From an uncultured Chitinophagaceae bacterium (lineage in GTDB: Bacteria; Bacteroidota; Ignavibacteria; UBA10030; UBA8401): a stretch of 64,000 nucleotides of DNA. Each line of letters opens with the position of its first letter. The stretch's first letter is position 1. This document shows positions 2,688 through 34,269 of the stretch, in pieces. Made by a program: the position numbers and the translations under genes. Below the pieces are notes generated by a model, which made no database searches, was not told where the DNA came from, and saw only the letters and a program-made list of their open reading frames with translations. The stretch is taken from contig CAZXQG010000012.1 in assembly GCA_964642725.1 (NCBI GenBank), positions 6,163 through 70,162 on the forward strand, written 5' to 3'.

Positions 2688-2690
2688 AGT

Positions 2691-8924: not shown

Positions 8925-10286
8925 CTATCGATTATCGGTCCCGACGAAGGATGTCTGATAAACGCCCTCAATTTCATCGCCGTATTGATGGATCGTTTTC
9001 ATCAATGGGATTCGCTGCGCCATCGCCAGTATAAGTTCCGGTGATTCAACACAGCGTTGCATTGCGTCCGACAATTCATCCGGTCTATTTCGTCCGACAA
9101 CATAGCCGTACTCGCCGTCCTTTACAAGCTCGGGAAGCGCACCAGAGCGAGAAACAATGACCGGCCTTCCTGCTGCGAGTGCCTCCGATACCACCAAACC
9201 GAACGCTTCATTTGCGAGCGAGGGACAGAGGAGAACGTCGATTGAGGAATAGGCTTTTTGCAATTCCACTCCGCTTTGATATCCGTGCTGGATAATTTTT
9301 GCGGCGCCCGTGTAATTCTTCATCAACGGAAAGAAATAGGATTCCTCTTCTTTACTCTGAACAGCACCGAATAAATGCAGCTCACATTGTTCCGCGTGTT
9401 CAAGACGTTCCAATGCTTGAACGATGAGGTGAATCCCTTTAACAAAACTGAATTGCCCCACATATCCGAATCTTATTTTTCTTTTGCCGTCAAACGTTAA
9501 CTCCGTCCGTTGCGTCGGTTGAATCCCGTGAGGAATGACGCGAATGCGCCCCTCTTCTACCCCGTTGCGAAGCAACAATTCCTTCATCGCAAGCGAAGGG
9601 ACAATAAACCGCTCTGAATACTTCCATACAATATGCATTTGTTCAATGGTCTGTTCGACCAACCACGGGTACCGCAGCACACGGAGGAGATACGGCAGCC
9701 GGCGTACCGAGTCCACCTTCTTGCCAAAATATCGATAAAACCATGAAGGCGATTTTCCGAGGAGTCCCCCCGTCCACCAATGCGGCGAACGGTACAGACT
9801 GCAGCACGGAACACATACCGAGGGGTCTGCTGGATAGCGACAGAGCGAGTGGTCGGGCCGAACAAGTGCGCCGGCAGTGCATGCTATCCCGGAATGATGA
9901 ATCGTCGTTACCGTCGGCAATCGGAGTTCTGCTGCCACCATCAGTGCCGCGGAATTAATTCCATTAATATGTATGATGTCCGGAGCGAATTCCGTGATAG
10001 CATCCTTCAACGCACCGCGAAGCAGCGGATGATTGACCGCGTATTTTTCGCCTTCCGTCGTGGCGGCGGGATTGAAACTCAGCGCGGCCACAGAAACGCC
10101 CTGGTAGACAAAATTGCTGCGCGCAAAACTCTTCGATCCCGGTTCCTGCCACGGCGCAAGCGTAACCACCCGCACTTCATAGCCCCGCACAGCCAGCTCC
10201 TGCGCGAGAGAAAGTATATACATTTCGCCGCCGCCGTACGAACTGGGGAAAAATCGGGATGCCGTAAGAAGAATTCTCTTCTTCAT
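8925..10286 (-). CDS. glycosyltransferase family 4
   Basis: The track ORF (486 aa from 10385) runs about 100 nt into the upstream gene. The ATG at 10286 (MKKRILLTASRFFPSSYGGGEMY) overlaps the upstream stop as ATGA and gives a normal GT4 N-terminus. The C-terminal motif is LCPSLANEAFGLVVSEALAAGRPVIVSRSGALPELVKDGEYGYVV. Confidence 0.8.
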   Translation of the reverse strand: MKKRILLTASRFFPSSYGGGEMYILSLAQELAVRGYEVRVVTLAPWQEPGSKSFARSNFVYQGVSVAALSFNPAATTEGEKYAVNHPLLRGALKDAITEFAPDIIHINGINSAALMVAAELRLPTVTTIHHSGIACTAGALVRPDHSLCRYPADPSVCVPCCSLYRSPHWWTGGLLGKSPSWFYRYFGKKVDSVRRLPYLLRVLRYPWLVEQTIEQMHIVWKYSERFIVPSLAMKELLLRNGVEEGRIRVIPHGIQPTQRTELTFDGKRKIRFGYVGQFSFVKGIHLIVQALERLEHAEQCELHLFGAVQSKEEESYFFPLMKNYTGAAKIIQHGYQSGVELQKAYSSIDVLLCPSLANEAFGLVVSEALAAGRPVIVSRSGALPELVKDGEYGYVVGRNRPDELSDAMQRCVESPELILAMAQRIPLMKTIHQYGDEIEGVYQTSFVGTDNR

Positions 10287-15882: not shown

Positions 15883-18273
15883 TTATGTTTTTTCCTTGGG
15901 GATATATTTTTGCTGATAGTAGTACTCTCCGTGCAGGTGGTAGTACCCCCGGTGCAAGCGATTCAATTCATATTGATTGACGACAATGCCGGCAAGATTC
16001 AGCCTGATTCCTTCGATGATATCCACGGAGTGCTCCAGGCTGTCAAACGTCGTTGAATTTGTCTTCACGACGAAAATGACGGCATCAACCATGGCGACCA
16101 ATAATTCTGAATCTGTAAAGAGAAGGATCGGCGGCGAATCGTACAAGATAACATCATACATCTTGTCGAGTTCTAATTTCAAATTCTTCATTGTCGACGA
16201 GCCGATGAGTTCGGTCGGATTCAGCGGGATCGCGCCGCAAGTCAGAATGTCCAGGTTTTCAATGAAGGTGTGGCGTATCGCTGCAGAAATATCGACCTCA
16301 CCGAACAGCACCTCCGTGAGACCGGGTTCAAGGTTCAAATTAAAAAGCTCGTGAACCGTCGGACGGCGCAAGTCGACGTCGACCAGCAGCACTTTTTTTC
16401 GAGTTTGCGCGAACACCACCGCAAGGTTTGCAGCCGTCAGCGACTTGCCTTCCTGAGGTGCGCCGCTCGATAAGAGAATACTCTTTACCGGCGTCTCTTT
16501 TTTCCAATACTGGATGCTGGTCCTCAACCGTCTGTACGAATCCGCAATTCTTGAATAAGGATTAATCGCCGTAACTAAATGCGGGTCGATAATCAAACCG
16601 TCGGACGCAGCTTCTTTCCCATCATCGCCAACCACTCTCCGAACTGTTCCCCGTTCCCCGTCCACCGTCCCGCTCACGGGATCCACGCGAGTAACGAGAT
16701 TCAGAGCCTTTTCATCCATGGCCGGAATCACCGTCAACACACTCAGTCCCCGGCGTTTGATATCTTCGGGTTTGTGAATCCGGTCGTCAAAATAGTTGAT
16801 GAAAAATGCCGAGCTGATTCCCATCACCAGGCCGATAAAGAATCCAAACCCGAGGTTCTTGGGAATGTTAGGATAAAGATGAGTCTGCGGAGGAAGGGCG
16901 TGCTGAAGGACGTCGACGTATCCGAATTCCGATTGCTCGGCGATAAGTGCGGACTGGTATTTTTCTTCCACGGCAACATAGACTTTTTCGAGCGTCATTT
17001 TTGACCGTTGAAGCCGGGCGTAATCAATATTGATTTTAGGGATGTTCTGAAAACGCGCTTCACCTTGGTTGATACCGTTCACCAATGCCTTGTGACGGAC
17101 TTCCAATGATTGAAGATGCATCTGGGCGTCAGTGAGCTTCTCGGCAAGGTCTTTGGCCAGTTCGCGTCTCTCAGCAGTTCTTCGCGGTTTGTTTAGACCG
17201 GTTCCCATCTTGTCGTTTATTTTCTTGTGGAGCGCTTCGATCTGGCTGTTGATATCTGCAATCCGATTCGACACCAGCGCCTGGTCTTGCATCTCTGAGT
17301 TCTGTTCTTTGATAAGGTCGCGTTCCTGTTCAAGCGCGTTAATCTGTTCCAATATTTTTTGTATCTCAATGCTGGCAACCATATCCATGATCCGCTTGCT
17401 GTCGGCATCAATCTCATCTTCCTCGTTCTTGGGGAGCGTTGCCTTGACGTCCGCCAGTCTTTTCTCGTACGTCAGCACCGTACTTCTCGCCGTTTCGATT
17501 TCGATCTCAACTTCGTCGCGCTGCGCTTCCAGGTCGGAAATAGTTTTTACCACGGTCTGATTTTCTTCGTCGATAGAACCGTGTTTCTCGATATACCGGC
17601 GAAGCGCGTCCTCAACGGTGTCGAGCGCCGTTTTCTTGGCCTGCAGGGTGCGCTCCAAAAATTCCCGCGTCGTGCGCAACTGCTTCCGGCTGTTATTGAG
17701 ATTGTTCTGGTAATATGCTTCTGCGTACACGTTTGCGATAATCGCGGCTTCCTTCGGGCTCGTGCTTAGCGCGCTGATGAAAATAACGTCGGACGCCTTA
17801 TCAGGGTCAAACGACACCGCATCATCAAGGCGGCCGAAGATCTCTTCGTTGTGGGCAAACGGTCCAAACGAAGGTTCGTCGTCCAAACGCTTGAGCACCT
17901 CAAGCGTGTCGTAGCCGCCCAATGTCGCGACGGGGTTTTTCTTCAGCAAGGCCAACACATCCTCGGCAATAACGCGGGATTTAAGAATGCCGATTTCTTT
18001 CATCAAGTTGCGCGTGCTTCCTCCAATGTCCGACAAATCAAGCGAACCTATCGCCATATCGCTTTTTGCCTTGCTGCTCACTTGAACGATTGCAACTCCT
18101 TGATAAATAAACGCGCCGAGGTATGTATAAAGGACGGCACCGATAAAAAAGGCGAGCGTTATCCCGATGATGACATATTTCCACCGTTCAAGGATTTCAA
18201 TATAATCACGAAGGCTCAATTCAAGAGCCGGCTGTGATGTCCCCGTACGACGATCTACTGTTTTTGCTGGCAT
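15883..18273 (-). CDS. polysaccharide co-polymerase / BY-tyrosine kinase (Wzc/GumC-like)
   Basis: 796 aa. It has an N-terminal TM, a long coiled-coil periplasmic region, a second TM and a kinase domain. The kinase has Walker A SSGAPQEGKSLTAANLA, A' LLVDVDLRRP and B VILYDSPP, plus a Tyr-rich tail RGYYHLHGEYYYQQKY. Confidence 0.85.
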   Translation of the reverse strand: MPAKTVDRRTGTSQPALELSLRDYIEILERWKYVIIGITLAFFIGAVLYTYLGAFIYQGVAIVQVSSKAKSDMAIGSLDLSDIGGSTRNLMKEIGILKSRVIAEDVLALLKKNPVATLGGYDTLEVLKRLDDEPSFGPFAHNEEIFGRLDDAVSFDPDKASDVIFISALSTSPKEAAIIANVYAEAYYQNNLNNSRKQLRTTREFLERTLQAKKTALDTVEDALRRYIEKHGSIDEENQTVVKTISDLEAQRDEVEIEIETARSTVLTYEKRLADVKATLPKNEEDEIDADSKRIMDMVASIEIQKILEQINALEQERDLIKEQNSEMQDQALVSNRIADINSQIEALHKKINDKMGTGLNKPRRTAERRELAKDLAEKLTDAQMHLQSLEVRHKALVNGINQGEARFQNIPKINIDYARLQRSKMTLEKVYVAVEEKYQSALIAEQSEFGYVDVLQHALPPQTHLYPNIPKNLGFGFFIGLVMGISSAFFINYFDDRIHKPEDIKRRGLSVLTVIPAMDEKALNLVTRVDPVSGTVDGERGTVRRVVGDDGKEAASDGLIIDPHLVTAINPYSRIADSYRRLRTSIQYWKKETPVKSILLSSGAPQEGKSLTAANLAVVFAQTRKKVLLVDVDLRRPTVHELFNLNLEPGLTEVLFGEVDISAAIRHTFIENLDILTCGAIPLNPTELIGSSTMKNLKLELDKMYDVILYDSPPILLFTDSELLVAMVDAVIFVVKTNSTTFDSLEHSVDIIEGIRLNLAGIVVNQYELNRLHRGYYHLHGEYYYQQKYIPKEKT

Positions 18274-18340
18274 AAGTAAGAAATTGATTACACGAAAACC
18301 CGTTTTACTACTGATGATTCAAGGAGGAGCATTGCTTTCA

Positions 18341-19714
18341 TTACCTCCCTTTACCAAACAGCATGATGTGAATTGTTTTCAGCATAATGTCAATATCTAG
18401 CAATAAAGAATAATGAGAAATATAGTAAAGGTCGTATTGAAGCTTCGTAATAGTATCGTCAATATTTTCGCCGTACGAATAATTCACCTGCGCCCAGCCC
18501 GTTATGCCGGGCTTCACGAGATGCCGGAAATGATAATACTCAATTTTCTGCTCATATTCACGTGCAACTTCAAACCATTCAGCCCGCGGGCCAATCATAC
18601 TCATTTCCCCCTTTAAGACATTCCATAACTGCGGTAATTCGTCTATTCTGGTCAATCGGAGTATTTTTCCCACCCTGGTAACGCGTGAGTCGTGTTCCCG
18701 GACATACCTATCTCCGGAAGCGAACCCATGAATCATTGTCCGGAATTTATACATCGTGAACGGTTGTTCGTTTCTGCCGATGCGTGTTTGCTTGAAAATA
18801 ATCGGGCCGCGACTCTCGATCCGGATCGATATTCCGATAATCACCATCACCGGGAAAAACAAAATAAAGCCTACCGATGCAATTGCAATGTCAAGCAGCT
18901 GTTTCAAACGGGTGTTCCAGGGATTCCGGACGAGCAGCAGGTCGCCTTCGAACAACCACCATTTGTTCAGGACAAAAAGAGGGACTTTACGAAAATTCTC
19001 CTCGAGGAACAGTCTGCTGGGAATTAACGGAACGTTGTGAAAATGGAGTGCGACCAGTTGCCTGAACACTTCGTTGCTCAGGGACGACCTGTCTTCGGTC
19101 AGAATAATACCATCGCATGTATCATTCATCGACCGAAGTTTATTGAGAACATCTCCTTCGATAACGGGCGACCCGTTTCCATAAATCGGCGAGCCGACTT
19201 TTTTCCCGCTCAAGTCGGCAAACCGCACCTCTTGATCTTTTGGCGTTTCGGCGTACATCCGGTACAACTCCTGCGCAGTTTCGTCGGTTCCGAGAACAAA
19301 ATAGAACCTTTTCCGCCGAATCTCGGCAAGACGGGAATTGATTGCTCTCCGTACGGAAAGCGAAATAATCAGGAACGTCAGAAACGTTGCCGGCAACACG
19401 CTGCGGCTGAATTGGAGCGATGGTTTATAGCTGAAGATATATACAACGACAATTGTCAACACGACGCTGATAATCATCGCTAAAATATACCGGCTGGTGA
19501 ACGGAAGGCTGCGCATATCAGTATCGGGGCTGTACGCGCCGACCGCTTCCAGCACCATCCACGTAAGAAGAACCGGCAAAATCGCCCGGTACCAATATTC
19601 GGTGACAAAATCGACGTCGGTGCGCAGAAGGCTCAGGATAAAAAATATTCCAAAGAGCGTCACTCCATCCGTCAGCATCAACGTCAATCTAAATATTTTC
19701 TTTGACCTTAGCAT
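18341..19714 (-). CDS. initiating polyprenyl-phosphate sugar-phosphate transferase (WbaP/EpsL-like bacterial sugar transferase)
   Basis: 457 aa with N-terminal TM helices. The C-terminal domain shows IIFKQTRIGRNEQPFTMYKFRTM, DELPQLWNVLKGEMSMIGPRAE and KPGITGWAQVN. Confidence 0.9.
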   Translation of the reverse strand: MLRSKKIFRLTLMLTDGVTLFGIFFILSLLRTDVDFVTEYWYRAILPVLLTWMVLEAVGAYSPDTDMRSLPFTSRYILAMIISVVLTIVVVYIFSYKPSLQFSRSVLPATFLTFLIISLSVRRAINSRLAEIRRKRFYFVLGTDETAQELYRMYAETPKDQEVRFADLSGKKVGSPIYGNGSPVIEGDVLNKLRSMNDTCDGIILTEDRSSLSNEVFRQLVALHFHNVPLIPSRLFLEENFRKVPLFVLNKWWLFEGDLLLVRNPWNTRLKQLLDIAIASVGFILFFPVMVIIGISIRIESRGPIIFKQTRIGRNEQPFTMYKFRTMIHGFASGDRYVREHDSRVTRVGKILRLTRIDELPQLWNVLKGEMSMIGPRAEWFEVAREYEQKIEYYHFRHLVKPGITGWAQVNYSYGENIDDTITKLQYDLYYISHYSLLLDIDIMLKTIHIMLFGKGR

Positions 19715-19726
19715 AAGATATAACGC

Positions 19727-20518
19727 TTACATCGAATCGTGTGAAGCAGTGTTTCGGAGCAGTCCTGCTCTTTGACAAAAAATATAATAGAGAAAAACCG
19801 GAGTTGAAACAAGGGTGCGTTTCCATACTCTTCGGGGTTCCCGAAGAAGCCGCGGCAGCCATTCCAGGCCGGCGTCTTGGAGAGATGTCGACGCTCTTTG
19901 TTTTGTTCCGGCAAAGAAGTCGAACGCGGCGCCTATCGCAGCAATGAACGGAACGTTGAGACGGCTGCGATGTTCCTGGCTCCATTTTTCCTGTTTTGGC
20001 GCCGTCATTCCAACCCACAGCGCAGTCGGCGCCGCGAGGTTGACAGCTTCAATGATTCTTTCATTATCAGCGTCGGAAAATTTCTCTCTAAAAGGGGGTG
20101 CATAGGTACCGCACACCGAGATATGAGGAAACTCGGCCGACATCCGCGCTCTGATTCTTTCCAGGACTTCTTCTGATGAGCCGAGGAAGAAAAAAGACTT
20201 CCCGCGCGTATTGTTCCATCGCTCGGCCATTCCTGCGAAAAAATCGTAACCTGTAATCCGGCGGGTAATTGTGCCCCCCAATATTTTCGACGCCAGCACA
20301 ATCCCGGCGCCGTCGGGAATGAGATAGTCGGCGGCACCAAGGGCGTTCAGGAATTGACGGTCGTCTTTTGCAACAACGAGTGAATGCGGGTTCGCGCAGA
20401 ACAGAGTTTTGCCCTTCATTCCCCGGGAAATTCCGTCGTCAATCGCATCAAGAATTTCGGGCAATTGTGCCGTCTGAACCTGAACATTCCAAATCATCTC
20501 ACGCTGAAAATCCGTCAT
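19727..20518 (-). CDS. WecB/TagA/CpsF family glycosyltransferase (GT26)
   Basis: 263 aa. Motifs seen are FCANPHSLVVAKDD, FFFLGSSEEVLERIRARMSAEFPHISVCGTYAPPF and LWVGMTAPKQEKW. The ATG overlaps the upstream stop (ATGA). Confidence 0.8.
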   Translation of the reverse strand: MTDFQREMIWNVQVQTAQLPEILDAIDDGISRGMKGKTLFCANPHSLVVAKDDRQFLNALGAADYLIPDGAGIVLASKILGGTITRRITGYDFFAGMAERWNNTRGKSFFFLGSSEEVLERIRARMSAEFPHISVCGTYAPPFREKFSDADNERIIEAVNLAAPTALWVGMTAPKQEKWSQEHRSRLNVPFIAAIGAAFDFFAGTKQRASTSLQDAGLEWLPRLLREPRRVWKRTLVSTPVFLYYIFCQRAGLLRNTASHDSM

Positions 20519-21735
20519 TGTTCATGCACTTTCGTTTTCCGATGTTCGCCCGCAGCACCGTAAATAGCCATCAAACGGCTGTAATTTTTCTCCGCGGTAT
20601 ACTTTTCATCAAAGTCGTGACGTGCACCTTCACCCAAAACACGCAATCTTGCATCGTCGGCAAGCAACCCCTTCACACACGCAATAATATCTCCGGCGTC
20701 TCCCGGAATGAACAGTCTGCCGTTGTTATTTTCGGTGATAAGGTACGGCAAGGAGCCGATATTCGACGCGGCAACCGGAACGCCGAGGGCAAAGGCTTCC
20801 TGGACAACCATAGGAAATCCCTCGTAGCACAGTGAGGGAATAACCAGCAATTTTGCGGTCGAGATATGTTTCATCGCTTCCTCGCGCGAAACGTTTCCAA
20901 GAAATGAAACCGAATCGGACGCCCCGCTCTCCCGGACCGAACGAACAAGCTGCTCTCTCATCGGCCCGTCCCCGATGACCTCCAATTGCGGCGCATCCTT
21001 TCCCATTTGCTGCCACGCCTCCACCAGAACGTGTATTCCTTTCGCCGCATACAACCTGCCGACAAAAACCGTTTTATTGTCCCTCTCTTTCCATGGAATC
21101 GGTTGAGGGGGAAGTTCGAGAAATTGAGGTTTAACAAAAAGCGATTCAGTCGGAATTCCGAATTGAATCATCTTTTCTCTTTGAAAATCCGTTAACGTGA
21201 TGAATGCGTCGACGTTCGTTCGCCATGTATTTATTGCGTTGTGAAAAGCAATCATTGCAGAAACGGGAAGTGTCGCTATTCTGCTGTCACGGTAACAGCC
21301 GTACCGCAGCGCCGGGATGACGCTCTTTCTGTCCAGACAGAGCGTGCATGGCTTGTCTTTTCGGAGAGCAGTTGCCGCCGAACAACCGATCCGATAGTTA
21401 TGCATCGTCATCACCGTCGGAGTATTATGTTCCCGAGAAGCGTAAAAAACAGAAGGCGATAGAAGCGGAAATGTGTTGTGAATGTGGACGATGTCGGGTT
21501 TCACTTCCCGCAATTTGCGCTTCAGCGCATTCAAACTGAACGGATTCCATACGGCGCCGGCCGCTCCCCTCAGCGACCCGATGAAACCTTCTCGAAGTAT
21601 TTCATCACTGTGCCGGTTAAATTCTGTAACGGAATGCCCGCGGTTCCGAAGAAGTCCAGCTTCGGCACGATATGCAGTGTTCTCCCCGCTTGGCGCAGTC
21701 GATCCATAAAAATTGTGAACGAGAAGAATTTTCAC
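20515..21735 (-). CDS. glycosyltransferase family 4
   Basis: 406 aa. A GTG start gives MKILLVHNFY. Motifs seen are VGRLYAAKGIHVLVEAW and IPSLCYEGFPMVVQEAFALGVPVAASNIGSLPYLITENNNGRLFIPGD. Confidence 0.85.
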   Translation of the reverse strand: MKILLVHNFYGSTAPSGENTAYRAEAGLLRNRGHSVTEFNRHSDEILREGFIGSLRGAAGAVWNPFSLNALKRKLREVKPDIVHIHNTFPLLSPSVFYASREHNTPTVMTMHNYRIGCSAATALRKDKPCTLCLDRKSVIPALRYGCYRDSRIATLPVSAMIAFHNAINTWRTNVDAFITLTDFQREKMIQFGIPTESLFVKPQFLELPPQPIPWKERDNKTVFVGRLYAAKGIHVLVEAWQQMGKDAPQLEVIGDGPMREQLVRSVRESGASDSVSFLGNVSREEAMKHISTAKLLVIPSLCYEGFPMVVQEAFALGVPVAASNIGSLPYLITENNNGRLFIPGDAGDIIACVKGLLADDARLRVLGEGARHDFDEKYTAEKNYSRLMAIYGAAGEHRKTKVHEQ

Positions 21736-21757
21736 AGCCTGTAAGAATGATCAAAGA

Positions 21758-22525
21758 TTATTGCGCCGATGGTGTACGGTCCATAAACCATTTTTTGACA
21801 AATAGCCCGGCGCGCAATGTTTTGTACTTTGTCAAATTCGTCTGACTGAAAATAGAAACGGGGTCGCGTAAATCATCGGCATAAATCCTGAACAACACGC
21901 CGCCGACTCCTTCCCATGTTCTATTGTCTCCCGCACCAACGGCAAAATTGTATTTGTAGTATTTTTGTACATACTTCACAATCGACGCGTTAAACTGTCC
22001 ATACGGGTAGACGAAAGTATCGACATGGTGGTGTAATTTTTGTTCGAGGACTTGTTTTGATTTGAAGAGTTCATCCTCAATGTTTCGGCATTGAAGCAGA
22101 TTGGGATGTGAATACGAGTGCGACGCAATTTTCACCAAACCGCCGGAACTAATCTCAGACAGCTCGCGCCACGAACAAAATGGGGCCGATTGTACATATC
22201 TGTCTCCCCCCATCATTTCATCAGTCGGCACGCCCAAACGGACATCTTGAGGAATGTGATCGCCTGAATCTAGAATGAACTTTGGGGAAACTGCAAGAAC
22301 TACGCGCATTCCAAATCTTTGTACTAACGGAAAGACATAACGGTAGAAACTATAACTAGCATCATCAAAAACCATGCAGAGATTTACGAGGTCTTTTGCC
22401 AAAACATCGCCCGGCAAAACAACTTGGAAGTGCTCTTTGATATACTCGAAATGTTTTTCAAAAATTGCACGGGAATTGGATAATTTATCTCCATCGATGC
22501 GATGATACATGCAACAAAGCAACAC
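21758..22525 (-). CDS. polysaccharide deacetylase (NodB-type) family protein
   Basis: 255 aa. Motifs seen are MYHRI, MVFDDASYSFYRYVFPLVQRFGMRVVLAVS and IASHSYSHPNL. The track start is GTG at 22525 and an ATG lies at 22510. It is the promoter-proximal gene of the locus. Confidence 0.7.
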   Translation of the reverse strand: MLLCCMYHRIDGDKLSNSRAIFEKHFEYIKEHFQVVLPGDVLAKDLVNLCMVFDDASYSFYRYVFPLVQRFGMRVVLAVSPKFILDSGDHIPQDVRLGVPTDEMMGGDRYVQSAPFCSWRELSEISSGGLVKIASHSYSHPNLLQCRNIEDELFKSKQVLEQKLHHHVDTFVYPYGQFNASIVKYVQKYYKYNFAVGAGDNRTWEGVGGVLFRIYADDLRDPVSIFSQTNLTKYKTLRAGLFVKKWFMDRTPSAQ

Positions 22526-23901: not shown

Positions 23902-25851
23902 TTATTCCCCCTCCACCAGAACTTCATACACCACCACCGGCGTTTCGAGCCCTTTCACTTTTATCGGGTCGAGCGGACGAATGGGAACTTCACCTTTGAC
24001 GTGCCGGTATGTTGCTTCTGAAATCATGATGCCTTCAACCGGTGCGTTGGATTCAAGCCGCTGAGCAAGGTTGACATCCGAGCCGAGAACGGTGTACTCC
24101 ATCCTCCGGGCCGAACCCAGATCTCCCACGACAACCTCGCCGGTGTTAATACCGATCCGGATCCGAAGCGGAAGCCTCCCTGCCGGTTCCCAACGGCGTT
24201 TCAGTTCGCGGCACTTATGTTGCATTTCAATCGCAGCCCGTACGCAGCGGAGCGCGTGGTCCGGCTGCGGTTCCGGCGCACCGTAAAAAACCATCAGGCC
24301 GTCCCCGATAAATTTGTCCACCGTTCCCCCGTACTTGAAAACGATGTCGGTCATCGCCTCGAAATATTCGTTCAACGTGGTGCTGATCTCTTCCGGCGTC
24401 ATCGTCGACGAATATGTCGTGAAGCTTTTGATGTCGCTGAACATGATGGTGACTTCTTTTCTTTTCGGCATCGTTGTCAGCATGTCCGGAGTATCCACCA
24501 GTTGGCGTACAACCGAGGGGGGAAAATATTGTTCAAACTTTGAACGAAGCTTTTGTTTCTCTTTCTCTTCTGTAACGTACCAGTACACTATGACCGACGC
24601 TGCTGAAAAGGCGCCGCTCATCAATGGACGAATGATCGCCATGACCACATTCGCGTATATGAAGAGCGTTGAAGCGGCAGCAACGTACGCCGCAAGAAGG
24701 CCGAATACTGCAAGCGCAAACCGTACCGATCTCAATCGGCTCGAAAAGAAAAAGAAAAGCGCAGCAAAAACTAGTTCCACACAGAGCATCGGTACAGCAG
24801 GCAACTCGAATAAGAAATTTTGCGTGAGGATCGTGTTGAGCGTATTCGCATGGAGTCCAACAAGGGGGAAGTTCTGCTCGAAAGGAGTCGGTCCGATGTC
24901 GGATACACCGGTAGAGACGTCGCCGATAATGGCGATGGACCCGCCGTACCGCTCACCGAACGCCTCGACCTCGTCGTTGTCATCGGCGATGCTCAGCACT
25001 TGCGAAAAACTCAAATGCCTCATAGCAGACCAATCGCCGATCCAATTGATCAGCATATTGCCGCGCGAATCAATAGGAATGACGATATCGTGGTTTGTTC
25101 CATCCTGTGTCCGGGCATTTCTGAGCGTTATCGACCTTCCGCCCCGTACTACGATGCGATCCGGCGTAACTTGAAGATAGTCGCAAACCAGCCGCATCGC
25201 CATGCTCGGGTAGAATTTTTCCCCGTAGCGAATCAGCAGCGGAACCCGCCGGAAGACACCGTCGGCATCGGGCTCAACGCTGATAAAGCCGATGCCGCGG
25301 GCAACCGTTGCCAGCTCATTCCACGTCAGGAGCGTCGCACCGGCTTTGTAAAATTCGCCGGCATCTTGCGCATCGAGAACCCACGATGTCGAGTCCAGAA
25401 AATGAACAACGTCGGGGGAGACCGTTCCCTTGTTGACGGTCGTATCGTCCAAACCAAAAGCTACGGGAAAATACGCCCGCCCGAATGTCTTTGTTGAAGC
25501 GATTAAGATGCTGTCGTCGAACGATTGTATCCTTTGGGCAAAAATAATGTCGAAGGCGACGGCGGCGCAATTCATTCTCCTCAATACATTGACAGCGTCG
25601 CCGTAGTACCGGCGCGGAAAATAGTAGCTCAGCTTCTTAATGGTGGAATTTGCAATATCGACATGAAGGATCGAAGAGTCGTACGCCGGTGGGTGGAATG
25701 CGGCTCGTGCAAGGAAGAGCCGGTCGACCGTTTGGCGATTCCAGGATTCGAATACGCCGGGAAAAATCCAAAAAAGGAAATGCGACAAACAAAACGATGC
25801 GGCGATTAACAATCCGGCGCCGGTAACTCTGCGCTTTTTACTTGTGGTCAA
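23902..25851 (-). CDS. CHASE2 sensor domain-containing class III adenylate/guanylate cyclase
   Basis: The track ORF (697 aa, TTG at 25995) extends 158 nt into the upstream gene. Alternative starts are ATG 25956 or TTG 25851 (LTTSKKRRVTGAGLLIAASF), so the start is uncertain. The architecture is a TM helix, a ~330-aa extracytoplasmic CHASE2-type region and three TM helices (LCVELVFAALFFFF, FALAVFGLLAAYVAAAS, VVMAIIRPLMSGAFSAASVIVYW). A cyclase domain follows (VTIMFSDIKSFT, VDKFIGDGLMVFYGAP, RIGINTGEVVVGDLG, YTVLGSDVNLAQRLES). Confidence 0.85.
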   Translation of the reverse strand: MTTSKKRRVTGAGLLIAASFCLSHFLFWIFPGVFESWNRQTVDRLFLARAAFHPPAYDSSILHVDIANSTIKKLSYYFPRRYYGDAVNVLRRMNCAAVAFDIIFAQRIQSFDDSILIASTKTFGRAYFPVAFGLDDTTVNKGTVSPDVVHFLDSTSWVLDAQDAGEFYKAGATLLTWNELATVARGIGFISVEPDADGVFRRVPLLIRYGEKFYPSMAMRLVCDYLQVTPDRIVVRGGRSITLRNARTQDGTNHDIVIPIDSRGNMLINWIGDWSAMRHLSFSQVLSIADDNDEVEAFGERYGGSIAIIGDVSTGVSDIGPTPFEQNFPLVGLHANTLNTILTQNFLFELPAVPMLCVELVFAALFFFFSSRLRSVRFALAVFGLLAAYVAAASTLFIYANVVMAIIRPLMSGAFSAASVIVYWYVTEEKEKQKLRSKFEQYFPPSVVRQLVDTPDMLTTMPKRKEVTIMFSDIKSFTTYSSTMTPEEISTTLNEYFEAMTDIVFKYGGTVDKFIGDGLMVFYGAPEPQPDHALRCVRAAIEMQHKCRELKRRWEPAGRLPLRIRIGINTGEVVVGDLGSARRMEYTVLGSDVNLAQRLESNAPVEGIMISEATYRHVKGEVPIRPLDPIKVKGLETPVVVYEVLVEGE

Positions 25852-26527
25852 TGGAAATCGTCTTGCTGAAAAAATTGTTCGCCAAAATCTCGGAAGCAAA
25901 CTGTGCAATGTCAACGCGCTCGGGGTCAACCGCGGGCTGCTTTTCCCCGCGGACATTGCCGGCAATGCTGATCGGCCGCTCGGCAATCGTCGCAAAAGTC
26001 CGGAACCGCTTTTTAATGTCTTTAATTTCGTTTACGACGAATAAGGCTGCATCGGGTTTTTTATCCGTTGCCGATTTAAAGTAGGCGTGCAAATCGTTCT
26101 CAAGGTCTGTCAGCCGCTCGGATGAGGCGAGCACGTAAAATGTTTCCGTCCCCGTATTCTTATCTAGCCTGTACCATTCACGGCCTTTCGGGATGTAGTA
26201 ATTCTTGTCGAGCTTGTAGTCTTTCTCGAACATCGCGCTGTCGTAGGGGAACAGCAGCGACAGCTCGTTAGCGGAGCTCTTATGGATCACGTAAATGAAC
26301 GCCGGCTTGACCAGGTTGACAAACAATTTGAATTCATCTCCGGTTTTTAACGACGTATCCTTGGTGACAACTCCGATTCGCCGATTTCCCGGATTTCCGC
26401 CCCGCGCGACAAACGCCCAGTTGTACTGGATATTATTGTCGGGGGATGCGTCTTGCGCATAGACGATTGACAATACTCCCGACAAAAAGATCATCAGGAA
26501 GATTCTGGACCATAGTCTTACAGCCAT
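25838..26527 (-). CDS. secreted DUF4384-like domain protein
   Basis: 229 aa with an ATG start. The signal peptide is MAVRLWSRIFLMIFLSGVLSIVYAQD. KTGDEFKLFVNLVKPAFIYVIHKSSANELSLLFPY ... IPKGREWYRLDKNTGTETFYVLASSE fits the DUF4384 beta-sandwich pattern. Confidence 0.6.
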   Translation of the reverse strand: MAVRLWSRIFLMIFLSGVLSIVYAQDASPDNNIQYNWAFVARGGNPGNRRIGVVTKDTSLKTGDEFKLFVNLVKPAFIYVIHKSSANELSLLFPYDSAMFEKDYKLDKNYYIPKGREWYRLDKNTGTETFYVLASSERLTDLENDLHAYFKSATDKKPDAALFVVNEIKDIKKRFRTFATIAERPISIAGNVRGEKQPAVDPERVDIAQFASEILANNFFSKTISIDHK

Positions 26528-26570
26528 TACGTATTATCCTTTCATGAATGGAGATAGCGACCGGGCGATT

Positions 26571-28979
26571 TCAATGGGGAACGAGCGAAATGGTCATATC
26601 CTTGTCGTAGTTCCCTTGATTGCGGGTCGGATGCTGGTTTCCTTTGGTTTGACGTTTGACATTTTCTTCGACGTAGTCCATCAATTCTCCGATCGTAACC
26701 GTGTAATCGTTGTTGATGTCGGCTTCGCCTTTCATCCCCTTCAGCAAAAAATACGTGAAAACCCCGTGCCCGAATTTATCAAGCTCTTGCGACACCTCTC
26801 CGGCCTGGCTTGCGGTGAAAACTATTGTTCCTTCCTTCGATCTCGACAAATCGGAAAGATATTGATTGATGAGATTCGTTTCGGTGAGCGAGACCCCGCG
26901 CGTCGCCACGTCGGAGCTGATTCCTCCGCTATGACATGCATCGGAAAATACGATGACGCGCTTCGAAGGAATGTATCGCGTCAGTGCCGTGTTGACATCC
27001 CACATAGGAAAGGCGGACGTTTCAAGGGAATTCGGGTCGCTGTCGTACGTCAATAAATAGTTGTTGTTCGGGTTCGCCGGCTCCGAAGCGCCATGTCCGG
27101 CGAAGTAGATGATCACCAAATCTTTGTCGATGGTCTGTCGGAGAAAATTATAGAGCGCCTGTTCAACGTTTTGCCGCGTTGCATCTTTGTTTAGAAGAAT
27201 TTTCATGTGGTCCGGCTCGAAACCGCCGCCGGCCGGGCTCTTCAAAAACTCCGCAAAGTCGCGGGCATCACGTTCCGCATAGCTGAGGTTTTTGATCAAC
27301 GGATTCGAGTACTCTGAAATCCCGATCACGACCGCCCATTGCTGCGGCTGGCCTGAAGGGTTCCGCCGCGGTTTGTCGGCCTCGACAGAAGCCGCGTTCG
27401 CCAAAATGCGGCGGTTAATATTAATGACTTTTGAAATCTTTTCGCCGTTCTTGCCGTAGACAGCGAACTGAACCTGGTTGAACCCCGACGAAAGAGGAAT
27501 CGTTTCAGATTGAAGAATGCCCGACAGCTTCCGGGGAATATTTTCCTTGCCGGCAATTTCAATGGTATTGAGTGAAATAGTATACCGCGAGTAATCGAAC
27601 CATATTTTGAATTCCAGATTTTCCGACGCCTGGTCCGTCTCCGCGTTTTCTTTTGGGTTGACAATCTCTACGGCGGATTCCTTTGTCAGCCGCTGAATGC
27701 GGATATTTTTGGTCGCAACATTCCCCCGTGTATCCGTTGCAGTAAGAGAAATATCGTTCGCACCGACAAGCGGGAGCTGCACGAGACCGGAAAATGCTTT
27801 TGACGGAATCTTTGTACCGAACTGCGATCTTTCATCAGCGGTCAATTCCATCAACGCAACCGATTGCCCTGCAACCGTCGCTTCTTTAACGCCGCTTTCA
27901 TCAGAAGCAATGCCCGTAAGTTCAATTTCGTTTGCGAACACTTTGCAGGTTTCCCCGTCTTTCAGAACCGGCTGTTGAAGAACAATCGTCGGCGGTTCTC
28001 TGTCCGGCTTTCGGGTTAGAACAGAAAATGTCTGCACGGCGCCGGATACTGTTACCCCGACAAGAGTGGAACTATCCGGCAGAAACAACGCAGCGGCGTA
28101 GACGATGCCGGTATCCGCGATGCTTTTCCGCAGGACCCCCGTCGTGACATCCCAGACCGCTATTCCGTTCCCCGTTGCAGCAAGCCATGAGTTGTTCGGG
28201 TTGAAAGCGAGCGATGTAATGGCGCTTGAATTTCCGCGCATTGTATGGAGGAGAGAAAAATTTTGAGCATCCCAGACTCTGATCGTTGAGTCTGCTCCCC
28301 CGGCGGCAAGATACTTGCCGTTCGGACTGAACGTTACGACGGTCGCTTTGTTTTTAACCTCCGTTAGAGTATTGAGAAGAACATACTTTTGCGGGTCAAA
28401 AATTCTGACGGCGCCGTCGGCGTTTGCAACGGCAACCCGGTTCCCAGCCGGGTTGAAACTAACACCGAGCACTTCGCTCTCATCCGTTCCATTGGGAAGC
28501 ATACCAAGAACGTCGTCCGATGCCATTGTCCAAAGTTTTATTTCTCCGTCGCCTCCGCCGCTGACAATTCTTCCCCCCGCATCAATGTCGAGCGAGCGAA
28601 CTCCAAGACCTTTTCCGTGTGCCGGAAACTCTTTTAACAGTGTACTATCGGCAACGCTCCAAAAAGAAAGAAGTCCGTTCGCCCCTCCTGAAACGAGATA
28701 CTTTCCGTCTGCAGTAATTGCAAGGGTCAATATCCTCGAACTGCGCCCGGTTAGAGTACACTTTTCCCGCAGAGTTACGGGGTCAATAATCTTTATTGAT
28801 TTGTCTAATCCGGCTAAAGCAAGAAGCCCTCCCCCCGAGGCGATTTTTGCGGTGTAAATCGTGTTTCTCGCAACCGTGGCGTGTTGAATGGGTTCAACGT
28901 ATAATTCCTGCGCAGACAATTCCACTAAACAGAGGAATACCGCGGAAAAGAATGCGAGCAGTGAGACCCTTGAAATCAT
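26571..28979 (-). CDS. secreted WD40-repeat protein with C-terminal caspase-like (peptidase C14) domain
   Basis: The track start is TTG at 29003. The ATG at 28979 gives MISRVSLLAFFSAVFLCLVELSAQE, a signal peptide. WD40 repeats are present (LVSGGANGLLSFWSV, IVSGGGDGEIKLWTM, AVANADGAVRIFD, LAAGGADSTIRVWDA). A ~200-aa beta-rich spacer precedes the caspase fold WAVVIGISEY. The catalytic His is in VIIYFAGHGAS and the catalytic Cys is in VIVFSDACHSGG. Confidence 0.85.
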   Translation of the reverse strand: MISRVSLLAFFSAVFLCLVELSAQELYVEPIQHATVARNTIYTAKIASGGGLLALAGLDKSIKIIDPVTLREKCTLTGRSSRILTLAITADGKYLVSGGANGLLSFWSVADSTLLKEFPAHGKGLGVRSLDIDAGGRIVSGGGDGEIKLWTMASDDVLGMLPNGTDESEVLGVSFNPAGNRVAVANADGAVRIFDPQKYVLLNTLTEVKNKATVVTFSPNGKYLAAGGADSTIRVWDAQNFSLLHTMRGNSSAITSLAFNPNNSWLAATGNGIAVWDVTTGVLRKSIADTGIVYAAALFLPDSSTLVGVTVSGAVQTFSVLTRKPDREPPTIVLQQPVLKDGETCKVFANEIELTGIASDESGVKEATVAGQSVALMELTADERSQFGTKIPSKAFSGLVQLPLVGANDISLTATDTRGNVATKNIRIQRLTKESAVEIVNPKENAETDQASENLEFKIWFDYSRYTISLNTIEIAGKENIPRKLSGILQSETIPLSSGFNQVQFAVYGKNGEKISKVININRRILANAASVEADKPRRNPSGQPQQWAVVIGISEYSNPLIKNLSYAERDARDFAEFLKSPAGGGFEPDHMKILLNKDATRQNVEQALYNFLRQTIDKDLVIIYFAGHGASEPANPNNNYLLTYDSDPNSLETSAFPMWDVNTALTRYIPSKRVIVFSDACHSGGISSDVATRGVSLTETNLINQYLSDLSRSKEGTIVFTASQAGEVSQELDKFGHGVFTYFLLKGMKGEADINNDYTVTIGELMDYVEENVKRQTKGNQHPTRNQGNYDKDMTISLVPH

Positions 28980-29231
28980 ATATTCCCTTTTTTCAAACGA
29001 CAATTATTGGGAGTATAGTCGATCGCTCATCGGTTGGGGATCGGCGAGAAGAACGCAGAATGTTCACAAGTATGGGAAAAAGTCATCTCTTTGTCAAGGC
29101 TCCTTATCACACCGAAGAAAGCCGGCCGAAGAGAAAAGCAATTGACTCTCGCCCCTCCGTTTTATATATTCAATTCGACTTTTTGAGTGTTTTTGGCTAT
29201 TGACGGTTCTTACTGCGGTTTTAAGAATTCC

Positions 29232-31227: not shown

Positions 31228-34206
31228 TTACACCCCCGGTTTCAAAATAATTCCTTTGTTCTTGTGCCCGTTCATTTTGACCGTGATTGGTTTTTCGCAG
31301 CGGATGTGGCGCGTGTAAGTCATTTCTTCTACGGCATGCTGCGCGCCAAGCCAGTCCCAATCAATAAACCCTTGATTCGCCTGAGCGTTGACCGTGAAAT
31401 ATCCGACCATAAATGACGTGAGGTTCTGGAAAAAGTGCGACCCTTGCGACGGAGCGACATTGAAATCTTTCATGTTCGCTTCGACGATTGCGCGGGCTCC
31501 GGAGATTTGATCCCACGTGACGGGAATTCCAAGCCACGGGTCGAGCGTCCCCCATCGTCCGACGCCGATGAGAAGGTACGGCGTGTTCTCCGAAACCAGT
31601 TTCATGTTGAGCCGGCTCACCTCCCAGCCGACTTCGCGGGTTTTCGCCCGGTCGAACCGGTTGATGTCCACAACGACGATATCGTGAATATCTTTGATGA
31701 CGCCGTTCCCCAAAACCTGCAAACTCTGGCACACCAGTCCTGCCGGGTCGATCTCTTCAACGTTCAATTCTTCCAACTCCCGGCTGATGACCAGCGGGCG
31801 CATCTGGAGCAGGCCGAATTCTTTCGGTTTTCCGTTCGGCACGGAGAGATTAACGGCGAATTCTATTTCCACAGCCGAGCCCATCCCCCAGCTTCCCATG
31901 TCGAGAAGTAGTTCAAGAATTTTGGGGAGGGGAAATAGCTGTCCCTTCAATACCGGCGCGAAGGTGACCAAACGAGTTCCCTGTCTCGATATGCCGTCGG
32001 AAATAGAATTGTTTTCGTGGGAGTACGTCGAGCCGATTGCATTCAATGTACCATCGTATTCGGCGATATGCAGGTCGAATTTTTTCACCAGCATGTCGCG
32101 GGTAACAACAATCGCGTCCTCACGCTCATTAAGGACAAGTCCGAAGAATTCATTCTGATTGTTTCGGATAACGTCGTCGATCGACATCAATTGTTGGAGC
32201 TGAAGGGGATGTTTCGGGCAGAAACGGAGAACATTTCCGCCGTCGGCGATGATTTTTCCGAGGCCCAACGCGACCGACGCAATGCCGTCCTGCGGCGTTT
32301 GCGGCTGGAGAGGATAGAAATTGTACGATTTCCCGACACCGGAAAAATCCGGATAAAATTTATTGTTGTGCGGCACACCAACCATCTTCTGGATGATCAC
32401 CGCCATTTTTTCTTCTTCAAGCCGGTACGATGTCACGCGAATATAATCTTTTGCGGACCGGTAAAACGTTGAAGCATAGACACGCTTAATCGTTTTCACG
32501 AGTTCTTTCAGCCTGCTTCGCCGGTCGGGGTCATTATTCGGAATCATATATGTTTCGTACACACCGGCGAACGGATGGTATTGGGAGTCCTCCAGCAGGC
32601 TCGACGAGCGAACAGCGAGCGGCTCATTCACGAGCTCGAGAAATGCCGCCAGGTCATTCAGTATCTCGTCCGGAAATTTTTTCGCCTCGAGGAATCGCCG
32701 GGTAAGTTCGGTATCGTCGTCGGCGTTAAGAGCGTAACTCCGAAGCCGGTTGTCGTCCAAAAATTGATCGAAAACATCCGTTCCGATTACCACTGACGAT
32801 GGGACAAAAATTTTCACACCGTCAAACCTGTCGCGCACATCGTGACTGTTGATAAGAAGGTTGACAAACCCCAGGCCGCGAGCTTTCCCGCCCAACGAAC
32901 CGCTGCCGATACGCGCAAAACTATTCGACGCGTCGAACGTTTCTTTCGTAAAATCTGTAATACTCCCCCGCTGGCGAAGCTGGCGGTAGTCGCGCAAAGA
33001 GGCGATAAGGTCGGCACGGAGAGCCGTCACGGACGGGTAATCCGACACCTTGCGCGGGCGCAGGCGGTGGGCGAGCCAGAATTCCGTGCGCGCCTTGAGC
33101 CAATTCGAAAAGTGATTCCGTTCGCCGTGGTAGCGAATGCTTTCTTCGGGCACCAGATGGAGTTGTTCTTCGAGTGTCTTTAAATCGTGTGCCCGGCCCA
33201 CCTCAACCCCATCCTGTGTGCGGAATACAAAGTCGCCAAAGCTGAAATACTGTACCATGAACTGCCGCAAATCTTCCAGCAGCGTCGGAGAATCCTTGAG
33301 CAGGAACGAGGCGCCGACTAACCGCGCCTGTTTCTCGTTCTCCCGCATATTCGATTGAAGCAAAATCGGAATGTCGGGATGTTCAATTTTTACATTCTTT
33401 GCAAATTCGATGCCGGCCTGAGGGTTTTGAACCCCTTCACGGAAAAAATCAATATCCGAGATCACTCCGAGAATATAGTCCTGGTATTTCCGGTAATACT
33501 CCCACGCTTCTTCGTATGTCGTGCAGAGAAGAATTTTCGGCCGCGCACGCATCCTCAGGAATTTATCTGAAAGATTAATTCCTTCGGAGATCAGCCGCAG
33601 CGATTGTTTCAGCGTCTCGGTGTAGATGAGCGGAAGATAGGACGAATAAAAGCGGACATTGTCTTCAATAAGAATGATCGATTGGACGCCCGCAGCGCGG
33701 GTATCGTTTTCGACGTTTAACCGGTCTTCAACGTACTTGATGATGGCGATGATGATACGAAAATCTCCCTGCCAGATAAATACCCTGTCAAACACCGACG
33801 TATCGTGGTGCGCGAACAATTCAGTCAATTCACGGTTATCATACGCCAGCACCACGATTGGGACATTCAATCCGGCTTCATGCACCATCCGCGCGAACGT
33901 CGCAGCATGCATGTCTTCGATATGCAGCGTTGTGATGATCATATCGAAGCGATTCTCTTCTTTCGCCAGCACGAGTGCATCTTTCCCGCTCGACACCCGG
34001 GTGAGTTCCGGCGAATGGCTTAAGTTCAATCCTTGATATTCGTTTCGGATTAACTCGTACAGCCTTCCGTCTTCTTCAAACAGGTATGAATCGTAAAGGC
34101 TGGAGACAAGAAGAATGTCGCGAACGCGGAAGCGGGCCAGGTTTTGAAAACCCTGGACGCGGGCACCGTAACCGTGTTCAACCCAGAGGGGATCGATGGT
34201 TTGCAT
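31228..34206 (-). CDS. pseudo-receiver domains fused to a PEP/pyruvate-binding (PPDK_N-type ATP-grasp) domain protein
   Basis: The track start (TTG at 34233) falls in the T-rich tail of the gdhA terminator. The ATG at 34206 (MQTIDPLW) is preferred. Two receiver-like modules lack the acidic pocket (RDILLVSSLYDSY, SIILIEDNVRFYSS). The central part shows ARIGSGSLGGKARGLGFVN, LAVRSSSLLEDS and FAGVYETY. The C-terminal ~230 aa are unassigned. No swivel phospho-His (TSHAA-like) motif was seen. Confidence 0.75.
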   Translation of the reverse strand: MQTIDPLWVEHGYGARVQGFQNLARFRVRDILLVSSLYDSYLFEEDGRLYELIRNEYQGLNLSHSPELTRVSSGKDALVLAKEENRFDMIITTLHIEDMHAATFARMVHEAGLNVPIVVLAYDNRELTELFAHHDTSVFDRVFIWQGDFRIIIAIIKYVEDRLNVENDTRAAGVQSIILIEDNVRFYSSYLPLIYTETLKQSLRLISEGINLSDKFLRMRARPKILLCTTYEEAWEYYRKYQDYILGVISDIDFFREGVQNPQAGIEFAKNVKIEHPDIPILLQSNMRENEKQARLVGASFLLKDSPTLLEDLRQFMVQYFSFGDFVFRTQDGVEVGRAHDLKTLEEQLHLVPEESIRYHGERNHFSNWLKARTEFWLAHRLRPRKVSDYPSVTALRADLIASLRDYRQLRQRGSITDFTKETFDASNSFARIGSGSLGGKARGLGFVNLLINSHDVRDRFDGVKIFVPSSVVIGTDVFDQFLDDNRLRSYALNADDDTELTRRFLEAKKFPDEILNDLAAFLELVNEPLAVRSSSLLEDSQYHPFAGVYETYMIPNNDPDRRSRLKELVKTIKRVYASTFYRSAKDYIRVTSYRLEEEKMAVIIQKMVGVPHNNKFYPDFSGVGKSYNFYPLQPQTPQDGIASVALGLGKIIADGGNVLRFCPKHPLQLQQLMSIDDVIRNNQNEFFGLVLNEREDAIVVTRDMLVKKFDLHIAEYDGTLNAIGSTYSHENNSISDGISRQGTRLVTFAPVLKGQLFPLPKILELLLDMGSWGMGSAVEIEFAVNLSVPNGKPKEFGLLQMRPLVISRELEELNVEEIDPAGLVCQSLQVLGNGVIKDIHDIVVVDINRFDRAKTREVGWEVSRLNMKLVSENTPYLLIGVGRWGTLDPWLGIPVTWDQISGARAIVEANMKDFNVAPSQGSHFFQNLTSFMVGYFTVNAQANQGFIDWDWLGAQHAVEEMTYTRHIRCEKPITVKMNGHKNKGIILKPGV

Positions 34207-34230
34207 TGAGGAATGGTAATAAAGAAAAAG

Positions 34231-34269
34231 CAAAAATAAAAGCAGGCGAGAAGGAATTTACTCGCCTGC
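34231..34269 (-). terminator. rho-independent terminator downstream of gdhA
   Basis: A perfect 9-bp stem, gcaggcgag (34242-34250) / ctcgcctgc (34261-34269), encloses a 10-nt loop. On the minus strand it is followed by ttttattttt. The plus strand also carries a T7 run after the stem, so it could act in both directions. Confidence 0.7.

Follow-up and report, generated by a model that had tools for sequence, protein, structure and literature searches.

A conserved operon encoding an exported caspase-like protease, a DUF4384 protein and a CHASE2 receptor cyclase: a candidate proteolytic relay to cyclic AMP

Here we describe a gene module found in a 64,000-nt stretch of an uncultured Chitinophagaceae genome (contig CAZXQG010000012.1; the whole stretch is hereafter the window), where three adjacent genes on the minus strand encode an exported protein with WD40, immunoglobulin-like (Ig-like) and caspase-like parts (g1), an exported DUF4384 protein (g2) and a CHASE2 receptor cyclase (g3). 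Related loci in about 100 species-level genomes join, in one operon, an active-looking caspase that is predicted to be exported, a small dedicated partner in which one exposed Arg is invariant, and a predicted CHASE2 adenylate cyclase. We are confident that these genes form a functionally linked signalling module. The complete chain that we propose, a four-gene extracytoplasmic relay in which the protease would act on the DUF4384 partner, the partner on CHASE2, and CHASE2 on the level of cyclic AMP (cAMP), is in our judgement evenly poised between being right and wrong. Roles of bacterial caspase homologues, exported ones especially, are largely a matter of guesswork, which usually points to cell death. 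The evidence considered throughout is comparative and predictive.

Conservation and variation of the operon

The three open reading frames are arranged in the order g1, g2, g3, with 43 nt between g1 and g2 and with the TTG start of g3 inside the 3' end of g2, an arrangement that matches the coordinates of the initial annotation of the window exactly, including the overlapping junction, which is 14 nt long and indicative of translational coupling. Public assemblies carrying an identical cyclase gave, through independent gene calls, proteins of identical length (802, 229 and 649 aa) and again an overlap of 14 nt.

A scan with an alignment of g2 (A1) led to 102 species-representative genomes, and the best 80 of these 102 are the basis of the locus counts given below; nearly all carriers of the module are metagenome-assembled genomes (MAGs). 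The neighbourhood that had been noticed in a single genome turned out to extend far beyond it. In 78/80 loci the gene directly upstream of g2 encodes a caspase, at a median distance of 68 nt and with WD40 repeats detectable in 69 of them, and a CHASE2 gene follows g2 in 79/80, the lone exception being a contig end. The coding regions of g2 and g3 overlap in 68 of these 79. In a separate survey seeded with the cyclase, a g2 homologue was found directly upstream of the orthologous CHASE2 cyclase in all 20 loci, which span Bacteroidota, Ignavibacteriota, Latescibacterota and Desulfobacterota. Ordinary neighbours in the window (a PPDK-like protein, a DUF2279 lipoprotein and exopolysaccharide genes) are common to only 7–8 of the 80 loci, so that the module has outlived general synteny. 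Median identity across loci falls from 69% for the cyclase domain and 66% for the caspase domain to 47% for g2, 40% for CHASE2, 35% for the Ig-like spacer of g1 and 28% for its WD40 region; the catalytic domains are thus the most constrained parts and the putative recognition module, WD40, is the most variable. In a few long-read MAGs (L020, 9302-11969; L019/L052, ~10120-10201; L061), the frame of g2 or g3 is split in two, either by sequencing frameshifts or because these copies of the module are decaying.

On the other side of g1, a divergently oriented gene for an exported TPR protein adjoins the caspase gene in 47/80 loci (identity 33-87%), and this protein probably belongs to the module as its fourth component. 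In the window it has 638 aa, as in the gene calls of public assemblies, and begins with the signal peptide MKNFFLSVFLPFFFLFSGANA followed by QQ (...GANA/QQ); its N-terminal 460 aa matched no family.

Judged from gene content, what stays invariant as the core is the DUF4384/CHASE2 pair with its translational coupling; the protease would be an accessory input to it. Across phyla, comparison of domain content shows that the predicted protease keeps its position and its catalytic domain while exchanging its non-catalytic module among WD40, TPR, FGE-sulfatase and TPR-CHAT forms. In Desulfobacterota, the protease gene encodes a signal peptide-TPR-Ig-caspase protein (L115, L124) or a caspase-FGE-sulfatase protein (L129), and in Latescibacterota (L008) a TPR-CHAT protein stands in the place of the protease. 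The picture of a three-gene relay drawn in the initial annotation is partly supported and needs amending, in that the core is the g2/g3 pair, the recognition module of the protease is exchangeable, and the TPR protein had been missed.

At L008 (4335-9215), the 864-aa TPR-CHAT protein upstream of the pair has, when read from its first start, no obvious signal peptide and is preceded by two ORFs of ~380 aa, possibly insertion-sequence genes, so that this protease gene may be 5'-truncated. At L119 (Desulfobacteraceae; 1962-4181 and 6204-6881), the DUF4384/CHASE2 pair is preceded by two caspase genes.

A separate, independent clade of CHASE2 cyclases from Rokubacteria/Methylomirabilota (L037, 105-7030; L038; L040) has no DUF4384 protein. 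Its partner is instead a 316-aa secreted protein with C-terminal TPR, encoded in start/stop overlap with the cyclase, and one or two secreted Ig-caspase genes stand beside the cyclase in 7/9 of these loci, a duplication that the caspase pair of L119 echoes. The association of protease and CHASE2 is therefore broader than DUF4384. Identification of the 316-aa partner as a FecR protein was unsupported by Pfam.

Features of the encoded proteins

Pfam matches in g1, g2 and g3 were judged against the curated gathering scores, and all five domains named in the initial annotation (WD40, Peptidase_C14, DUF4384, CHASE2 and Guanylate_cyc) exceeded them. Signal peptides were called by eye and from hydropathy, without a trained predictor. 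Residue conservation was counted in 74 orthologues of g1, 90 sequences of g2 and, for g3, 30 homologues. Coordinates of the features are collected in Table 1.

The g1 protein opens with a signal-peptide-like segment, MISRVSLLAFFSAVFLCLVELSA, followed by QE; like g2, it has a single hydrophobic segment at the N-terminus, behind basic residues, and lacks a lipobox Cys. In ~70 orthologues the same region shows a basic n-region, a hydrophobic core and an A-x-A/Q-type end, typical of a Sec-type signal peptide and usually followed by a Q-E-(L/I)-Y-V-E motif. This conservation argues that g1 is not cytoplasmic, in line with the initial annotation. Pfam WD40 matches (E 3e-34, region ~41-325) are accompanied by many other beta-propeller models. 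The beta-rich spacer noted earlier downstream of the propeller is present and, by sequence comparison, is Ig-like: its Glucodextran_B match is weak (E 2e-4), and in the caspases of L037, L115 and L124 the corresponding position gives Glucodextran_B and Big_7 matches that pass the threshold.

The caspase-like domain (PF00656, residues 547-789, E 7e-24, 85.3 bits, cutoff 21.4) retains both of the catalytic motifs reported for it, YFAGHGAS and FSDACHSGG. His629, Cys682 and Asp680 are each kept in 73/74 orthologues, which indicates selection for catalysis. The closest solved structures are those of Arabidopsis metacaspase-4 (6w8s) and GSU0716 (3bij). Asp680, two residues ahead of Cys682, we take to be an S1-pocket residue, as in metacaspases; it fits a predicted specificity of the g1 protease for basic residues (Arg/Lys) over Asp. 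Arg694, within an A-T-Arg694-Gly motif 12 residues past Cys682, is likewise kept in 73/74 orthologues; the conserved T-R694-G lies at the place where metacaspases autoprocess, which may hint at autoprocessing of g1.

The g2 protein also carries a signal-peptide-like N-terminus, MAVRLWSRIFLMIFLSGVLSIVYA followed by QD (ending ...VYA/QD). DUF4384 (PF14326, residues 60-137, E 2e-12, 47.2 bits, cutoff 27) was its only Pfam match at E<=0.01; no FecR domain was found at this threshold, and we set a FecR identity of g2 aside. Its family consists of stand-alone proteins of ~230 aa (237 clusters at E<=1e-30). In the AlphaFold2 (AF2) model (predicted local distance difference test, pLDDT, 81.7), aa 33-135 form a beta-sandwich, aa 140-174 a helical hairpin and aa 212-228 a beta-hairpin at the C-terminus. 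A Foldseek search of this model against PDB gave weak Ig-like/filamin-type sandwiches (template-modelling score, TM, ~0.25-0.3) and spurious GlgE matches, with no functional lead. Between the two hairpins runs a loop that reads A-E-(R/K)-P-x-x-I-(G/A)-G-N-(V/I)-Arg193-(G/S) across the family, with E183, P185, I188, G190 and R193 invariant in 90/90 sequences; residues 188-196, at pLDDT <50, are the sole low-confidence stretch of the mature protein. Because an invariant exposed Arg here has for a neighbour an Arg/Lys-type protease with its own R-G after the Cys, the Arg193-Gly194 loop, predicted to be disordered, is a plausible candidate for cleavage by a metacaspase-like enzyme with Arg/Lys specificity.

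The third protein matches CHASE2 (PF05226, residues 26-366, E 8e-42, 144.1 bits, cutoff 26.3) and Guanylate_cyc (PF00211, residues 462-639, E 5e-35, 121.3 bits). Hydropathy gives a basic N-terminus, a transmembrane segment at 12-30, an ectodomain at 31-349, three transmembrane segments within 350-421 and then the cyclase, and the AF2 model (pLDDT 82.2) has long helices at these transmembrane positions, in agreement with the architecture assigned at the outset. CHASE2 is thereby predicted to face the extracytoplasmic side that it would share with g1 and g2, and the cyclase domain the cytoplasm. The cyclase matches CyaB, CyaC and Cya2 both by sequence (PDB) and by fold (TM 0.83-0.89). In a Foldseek search with the full g3 model, cyclase-domain matches dominated and gave no information on the CHASE2 fold, and no sequence relative in PDB covered the CHASE2 domain.

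Both metal-binding Asp motifs reported for the cyclase, FSDIKSF (Asp473) and IGDGLM (Asp517), are present, and D473, D517, K513, T587, N594 and R598 are invariant in the 30 homologues. Following CyaC numbering, we take these residues to be the metal Asp pair, the substrate Lys and Thr, and the transition-state Asn and Arg. The combination of Lys and Thr is that of adenylate cyclases (class IIIb). Lys513 and Thr587 therefore predict cAMP as the product of g3, where the earlier proposal had cAMP/cGMP output; we regard g3 as a predicted adenylate cyclase, class IIIb-like. A second low-confidence loop, this one in the CHASE2 ectodomain (aa 314-330, pLDDT <50; window ~24862-24912, minus strand) precedes the second transmembrane segment, with invariant T314, G315, D318, P323, P329, G332 and H334 in and next to it. 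Lacking Arg and Lys in this genome, this loop is unlikely to be cut by the protease, and may act as a hinge or bind a partner.

Table 1. Positions of the module genes, their features and the adjoining divergent region in the window
Feature	Position	Strand	Basis or remark
g1, exported WD40/Ig-like/caspase protein	26571..28979	(-)	ATG start, 802 aa; Pfam WD40 + Peptidase_C14
g1 signal peptide, aa 1-23 (...LVELSA/QELYVE)	28911..28979	(-)	single N-terminal hydrophobic segment
g1 WD40 beta-propeller, aa ~41-325	28005..28859	(-)	Pfam WD40; most variable part of g1
g1 Ig-like spacer, aa 331-540	27360..27989	(-)	weak Glucodextran_B, Big_3_2, Cadherin-like matches
g1 caspase domain, aa 547-789	26613..27341	(-)	Peptidase_C14
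g1 His629 (YFAGHGAS)	27093-27095	(-)	catalytic dyad
g1 Cys682 (FSDACHSGG)	26934-26936	(-)	catalytic dyad
g2, exported DUF4384 protein	25838..26527	(-)	229 aa; Pfam DUF4384
g2 signal peptide, aa 1-24	26456-26527	(-)	eye + hydropathy
g2 DUF4384 core, aa 60-137	26117-26350	(-)	Pfam
g2 invariant loop E183-R-P-I-S-I-A-G-N-V-R193-G194	25946..25981	(-)	candidate cleavage or recognition site
g2 Arg193 codon	25949-25951	(-)	candidate cut site
g2 stop / g3 TTG start overlap, 14 nt	25838..25851	(-)	sequence; translational coupling
g3, CHASE2 receptor cyclase	23902..25851	(-)	TTG start within 3' end of g2; 649 aa
g3 CHASE2, aa 26-366	24754-25776	(-)	Pfam
g3 three transmembrane segments, aa 350-421	24589-24804	(-)	hydropathy
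g3 class III cyclase, aa 462-639	23935-24468	(-)	Pfam
Divergent intergenic region, g1 to TPR gene, 252 bp	28980..29231	(.)	sigma-70-like hexamers facing both ways
Sigma-70-like hexamers TTGACA-17-CATACT	29097-29069	minus	consensus match only
Sigma-70-like hexamers TTGACT-17-TATATT	29142-29170	plus	consensus match only
Exported TPR protein, 638 aa	29232..31148	(+)	Pfam TPR families in C-terminal third

A possible proteolytic relay and its alternatives

In the relay that we propose, the DUF4384 protein would be a dedicated partner of the CHASE2 ectodomain, as a co-receptor or a pro-ligand. The WD40 propeller of the protease, or TPR and other modules elsewhere, would recognise the actual cue or position the enzyme, and the metacaspase-like domain, with its predicted Arg/Lys specificity, would cut the DUF4384 protein at the exposed Arg193-Gly194 loop. 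The cut partner would then engage CHASE2 differently, relieving or imposing inhibition of the cyclase and so altering cAMP, with the secreted TPR protein serving as a scaffold or regulator that perhaps guides the protease. Sinorhizobium meliloti CyaD1 is constitutively active when it lacks CHASE2 (PMC5498481), which argues that CHASE2 gates activity, and on account of this deletion phenotype CHASE2 is presumed here to be inhibitory.

Relays that run from a protease to a receptor are familiar from Spaetzle/Toll, from protease-activated receptors and from the site-1 cleavage of anti-sigma factors (RseA, FecR). The logic proposed for the module would resemble that of Spaetzle/Toll or protease-activated receptors, rather than apoptosis, in that an extracytoplasmic protease turns a protein into the ligand of a receptor or removes that ligand; there is no homology, and the comparison concerns a possible way of working, not a family. 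To our knowledge, no bacterial cyclase is controlled by such a relay, and we know of no activating signal or mechanism established for CHASE2, a sensor domain widespread in bacteria, since its description in 2003. Were the relay to operate, second-messenger signalling would gain a route gated by a protease, and other CHASE2 receptors, such as kinases and diguanylate cyclases, that stand beside secreted partners could be read on its model. A more general reading, which we put forward tentatively and regard as doubtful, is that CHASE2 domains read extracytoplasmic proteolysis and not small molecules: an exported caspase-like protease whose recognition module is exchangeable would cut a dedicated partner, DUF4384 here and others elsewhere, and the processed partner would switch the receptor. 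This would amount to the first protease-activated receptor cyclase in bacteria and to a signalling role, unrelated to death, for exported bacterial caspases. If the relay is false, the DUF4384/CHASE2 pair still marks a candidate CHASE2 co-receptor.

Every computational check named with the initial annotation as one that could refute it was run, and none contradicted it. Several observations nevertheless weigh against the relay. It is proposed from gene context and sequence features. Export, to the periplasm or the cell surface, was assigned by eye and hydropathy only, and the Arg/Lys specificity of g1 hangs on one pocket residue and on family resemblance. Fusions of g2 relatives were sought because a fusion would argue for physical contact, and none to CHASE2 or to a caspase-type protease occurred in the best 150 of 3162 relatives. 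The g2/g3 pair stands without an adjacent protease at four Desulfobacterales loci (L009, L013, L016 and L018, the last with a CHAT gene nearby) and two Bacteroidota loci (L088 and L117), and the Arg193 loop is equally invariant where the protease is absent, so that it may serve CHASE2 binding instead of cleavage.

Such protease-free loci, and the conservation of the loop in them, would fit an arrangement in which DUF4384 and CHASE2 form the whole sensor and the protease, rather than a signal input, is a co-expressed factor for maturation, turnover or adaptation (for example, one that clears used partner) or an enzyme exported as an output, with other substrates in the envelope or outside the cell. 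The fast evolution of WD40, at a median identity of 28%, would fit it as well, being expected of a domain that faces varied external targets. However, the protease comes first in the operon, with its fixed spacing (median 68 nt), in 78/80 loci, distant phyla swap in other clan-CD proteases rather than losing the protease, and secreted caspases also lie beside CHASE2 cyclases that have a different partner, which points to a direct link with the receptor; with both sides considered, we find this arrangement unlikely, if still to be reckoned with. We consider it quite improbable that the caspase domain is mainly a binding scaffold, whose substrate groove would hold the DUF4384 protein or CHASE2 with no regulatory cut while WD40 brings in the cue. 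Many bacterial caspase homologues are indeed pseudo-enzymes (PMC6426788, PMC7475262), and cleavage by g1 is itself a proposal only, but the retention of His629, Cys682 and Asp680 in all but one of 74 orthologues speaks against a domain that merely binds.

A system of conflict or programmed cell death, in which the cyclase would make a nucleotide alarm and the caspase would execute the cell, as in caspase-containing defence or Pycsar, also has some resemblances on its side: g1 is similar to the EACC1-associated caspase model (NCBIfam NF047832, 109.6 bits) and to a caspase model of PADLOC, g3 has matches among the PycC cyclase models, and clusters of this kind have been read as cell-death genes (PMC3914696). 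Yet the NCBIfam score lies under the cutoff of 140, for which reason we do not assign g1 to the EACC1-type caspases, and the PycC matches extend no further than the generic cyclase fold. Among the genes conserved in the module we saw no nucleotide-binding effector, NTPase or EACC gene, and annotation of the surroundings, over ~15.9-35.7 kb of the window and in public gene calls, showed neither a cyclic-nucleotide-binding effector of the Pycsar kind nor an EACC-type gene. Moreover, a protease that is exported cannot kill the cell from within, the module is surrounded by housekeeping and exopolysaccharide genes, and it is vertically conserved across a clade. With PADLOC returning only generic caspase and PycC matches and no effector gene being found, defence was rejected as the main explanation and seems to us highly unlikely. 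That the genes lie together by incidental synteny, without functional meaning, has only the absence of experiments in its favour and is scarcely credible: it is contradicted by the conservation of the locus, whose order is kept in ~80 species-level genomes of several phyla while neighbours are down to 7–8/80, and by the overlapping reading frames and the recurrent replacement of the protease.

Related systems and genomic surroundings

Clusters of a CHASE2 receptor with secreted partners have been described before, and what is new here is the version with a protease and DUF4384. CHASE2 receptors cluster with secreted FecR/LysM and TPR proteins in the Burkholderia 'BiofilmReg' operon (PMC5192318), and a CHASE2 adenylate cyclase clusters with FecR, TPR and phosphodiesterase genes in Campylobacterota (PMC9239204). 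Those clusters share with the module a CHASE2 receptor beside a small exported partner and a TPR protein, a function inferred from clustering and a CHASE2 cue that is unassigned; they differ from it in that the partner of the module is DUF4384, a secreted caspase-like protease is almost constant, and its conserved set contains no phosphodiesterase or response regulator.

The background to the CHASE2 cyclases of S. meliloti includes work by Tian et al. (2012) and the outer-membrane protein NsrA. Three of them, CyaD1, CyaD2 and CyaK, have the same architecture of CHASE2 and class III cyclase and make cAMP (PMC5498481). Their pathway includes exported FecR and TPR proteins, with no protease or DUF4384 partner described there, and its input is an unidentified plant signal.

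Clan-CD caspase domains have been joined with CHASE2 repeatedly in evolution, as in the metacaspase-CHASE2 fusion of Trichodesmium (PMC3501461) and the EACC2-caspase-CHASE2 fusion (PMC8195603). In these fusions the caspase is cytoplasmic and would be the output of CHASE2, whereas in the module the caspase is a separate protein, predicted to be exported, that belongs to the sensing side, and the cyclase provides the output. Genomic island 15 of Psychroflexus torquis, another member of Bacteroidota, places WD40 metacaspases with signal peptides beside a CHASE2 protein (PMC3914696); it is 35 kb long with four metacaspases, is mentioned in a figure only, was read as cell-death genes, and is likened to the module here by description only.

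The earlier statement that DUF4384 accompanies protease domains has backing in the literature (bioRxiv 10.1101/2022.08.17.504292; PMC7475262). One class of Csx30 proteins, which the caspase-like protease Csx29 cuts, carries DUF4384 at the C-terminus (bioRxiv 10.1101/2022.08.17.504292), and this, together with the CyaD1 phenotype, is published support for the proposed relay. In this type III-E Craspase, as proposed for the module, a protease (the TPR-CHAT protein Csx29) cuts a partner (Csx30) at a linker and thereby releases a regulator. Craspase, by contrast, is cytoplasmic and RNA-guided and controls a sigma factor, whereas the module has no Cas genes and its output is a cyclase; no Cas7-11, Csx29 or Csx30 was found among the genes annotated over ~15.9-35.7 kb of the window or in public gene calls. 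In the literature that we searched, no paper linked DUF4384 with CHASE2 or proposed protease control of a CHASE2 cyclase; a search for CHASE2 with the CHAT domain gave no match, and one for CHASE2 with DUF4384 gave a single review that does not link them.

Promoter and terminator scans of the region gave consensus matches that barely exceed shuffled expectation, which lends weak support to divergent promoters between g1 and the TPR gene. An Rfam scan of the window (1-64000) returned no RNA family at the gathering score, and two antisense plus-strand ORFs within g3 (24314-25174 and 24820-25497) were unsupported and were taken as chance.

Directly downstream of the module lies an exopolysaccharide-type cluster (window 15883-22525, minus strand) encoding a Wzz/AAA_31 chain-length regulator, Bac_transf, WecG/TagA, GT4 and a polysaccharide deacetylase. 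It is placed outside the module because it is common to the 7 closest relatives only; control of exopolysaccharide by cAMP is known in S. meliloti (PMC5498481). Beyond the TPR gene, and adjoining it in the 8 closest relatives only, a 1001-aa protein (window 31228-34233, minus strand) carries a PPDK_N domain (phosphoenolpyruvate-utilising, ATP-grasp-like) and a weak N-terminal match to a receiver domain.

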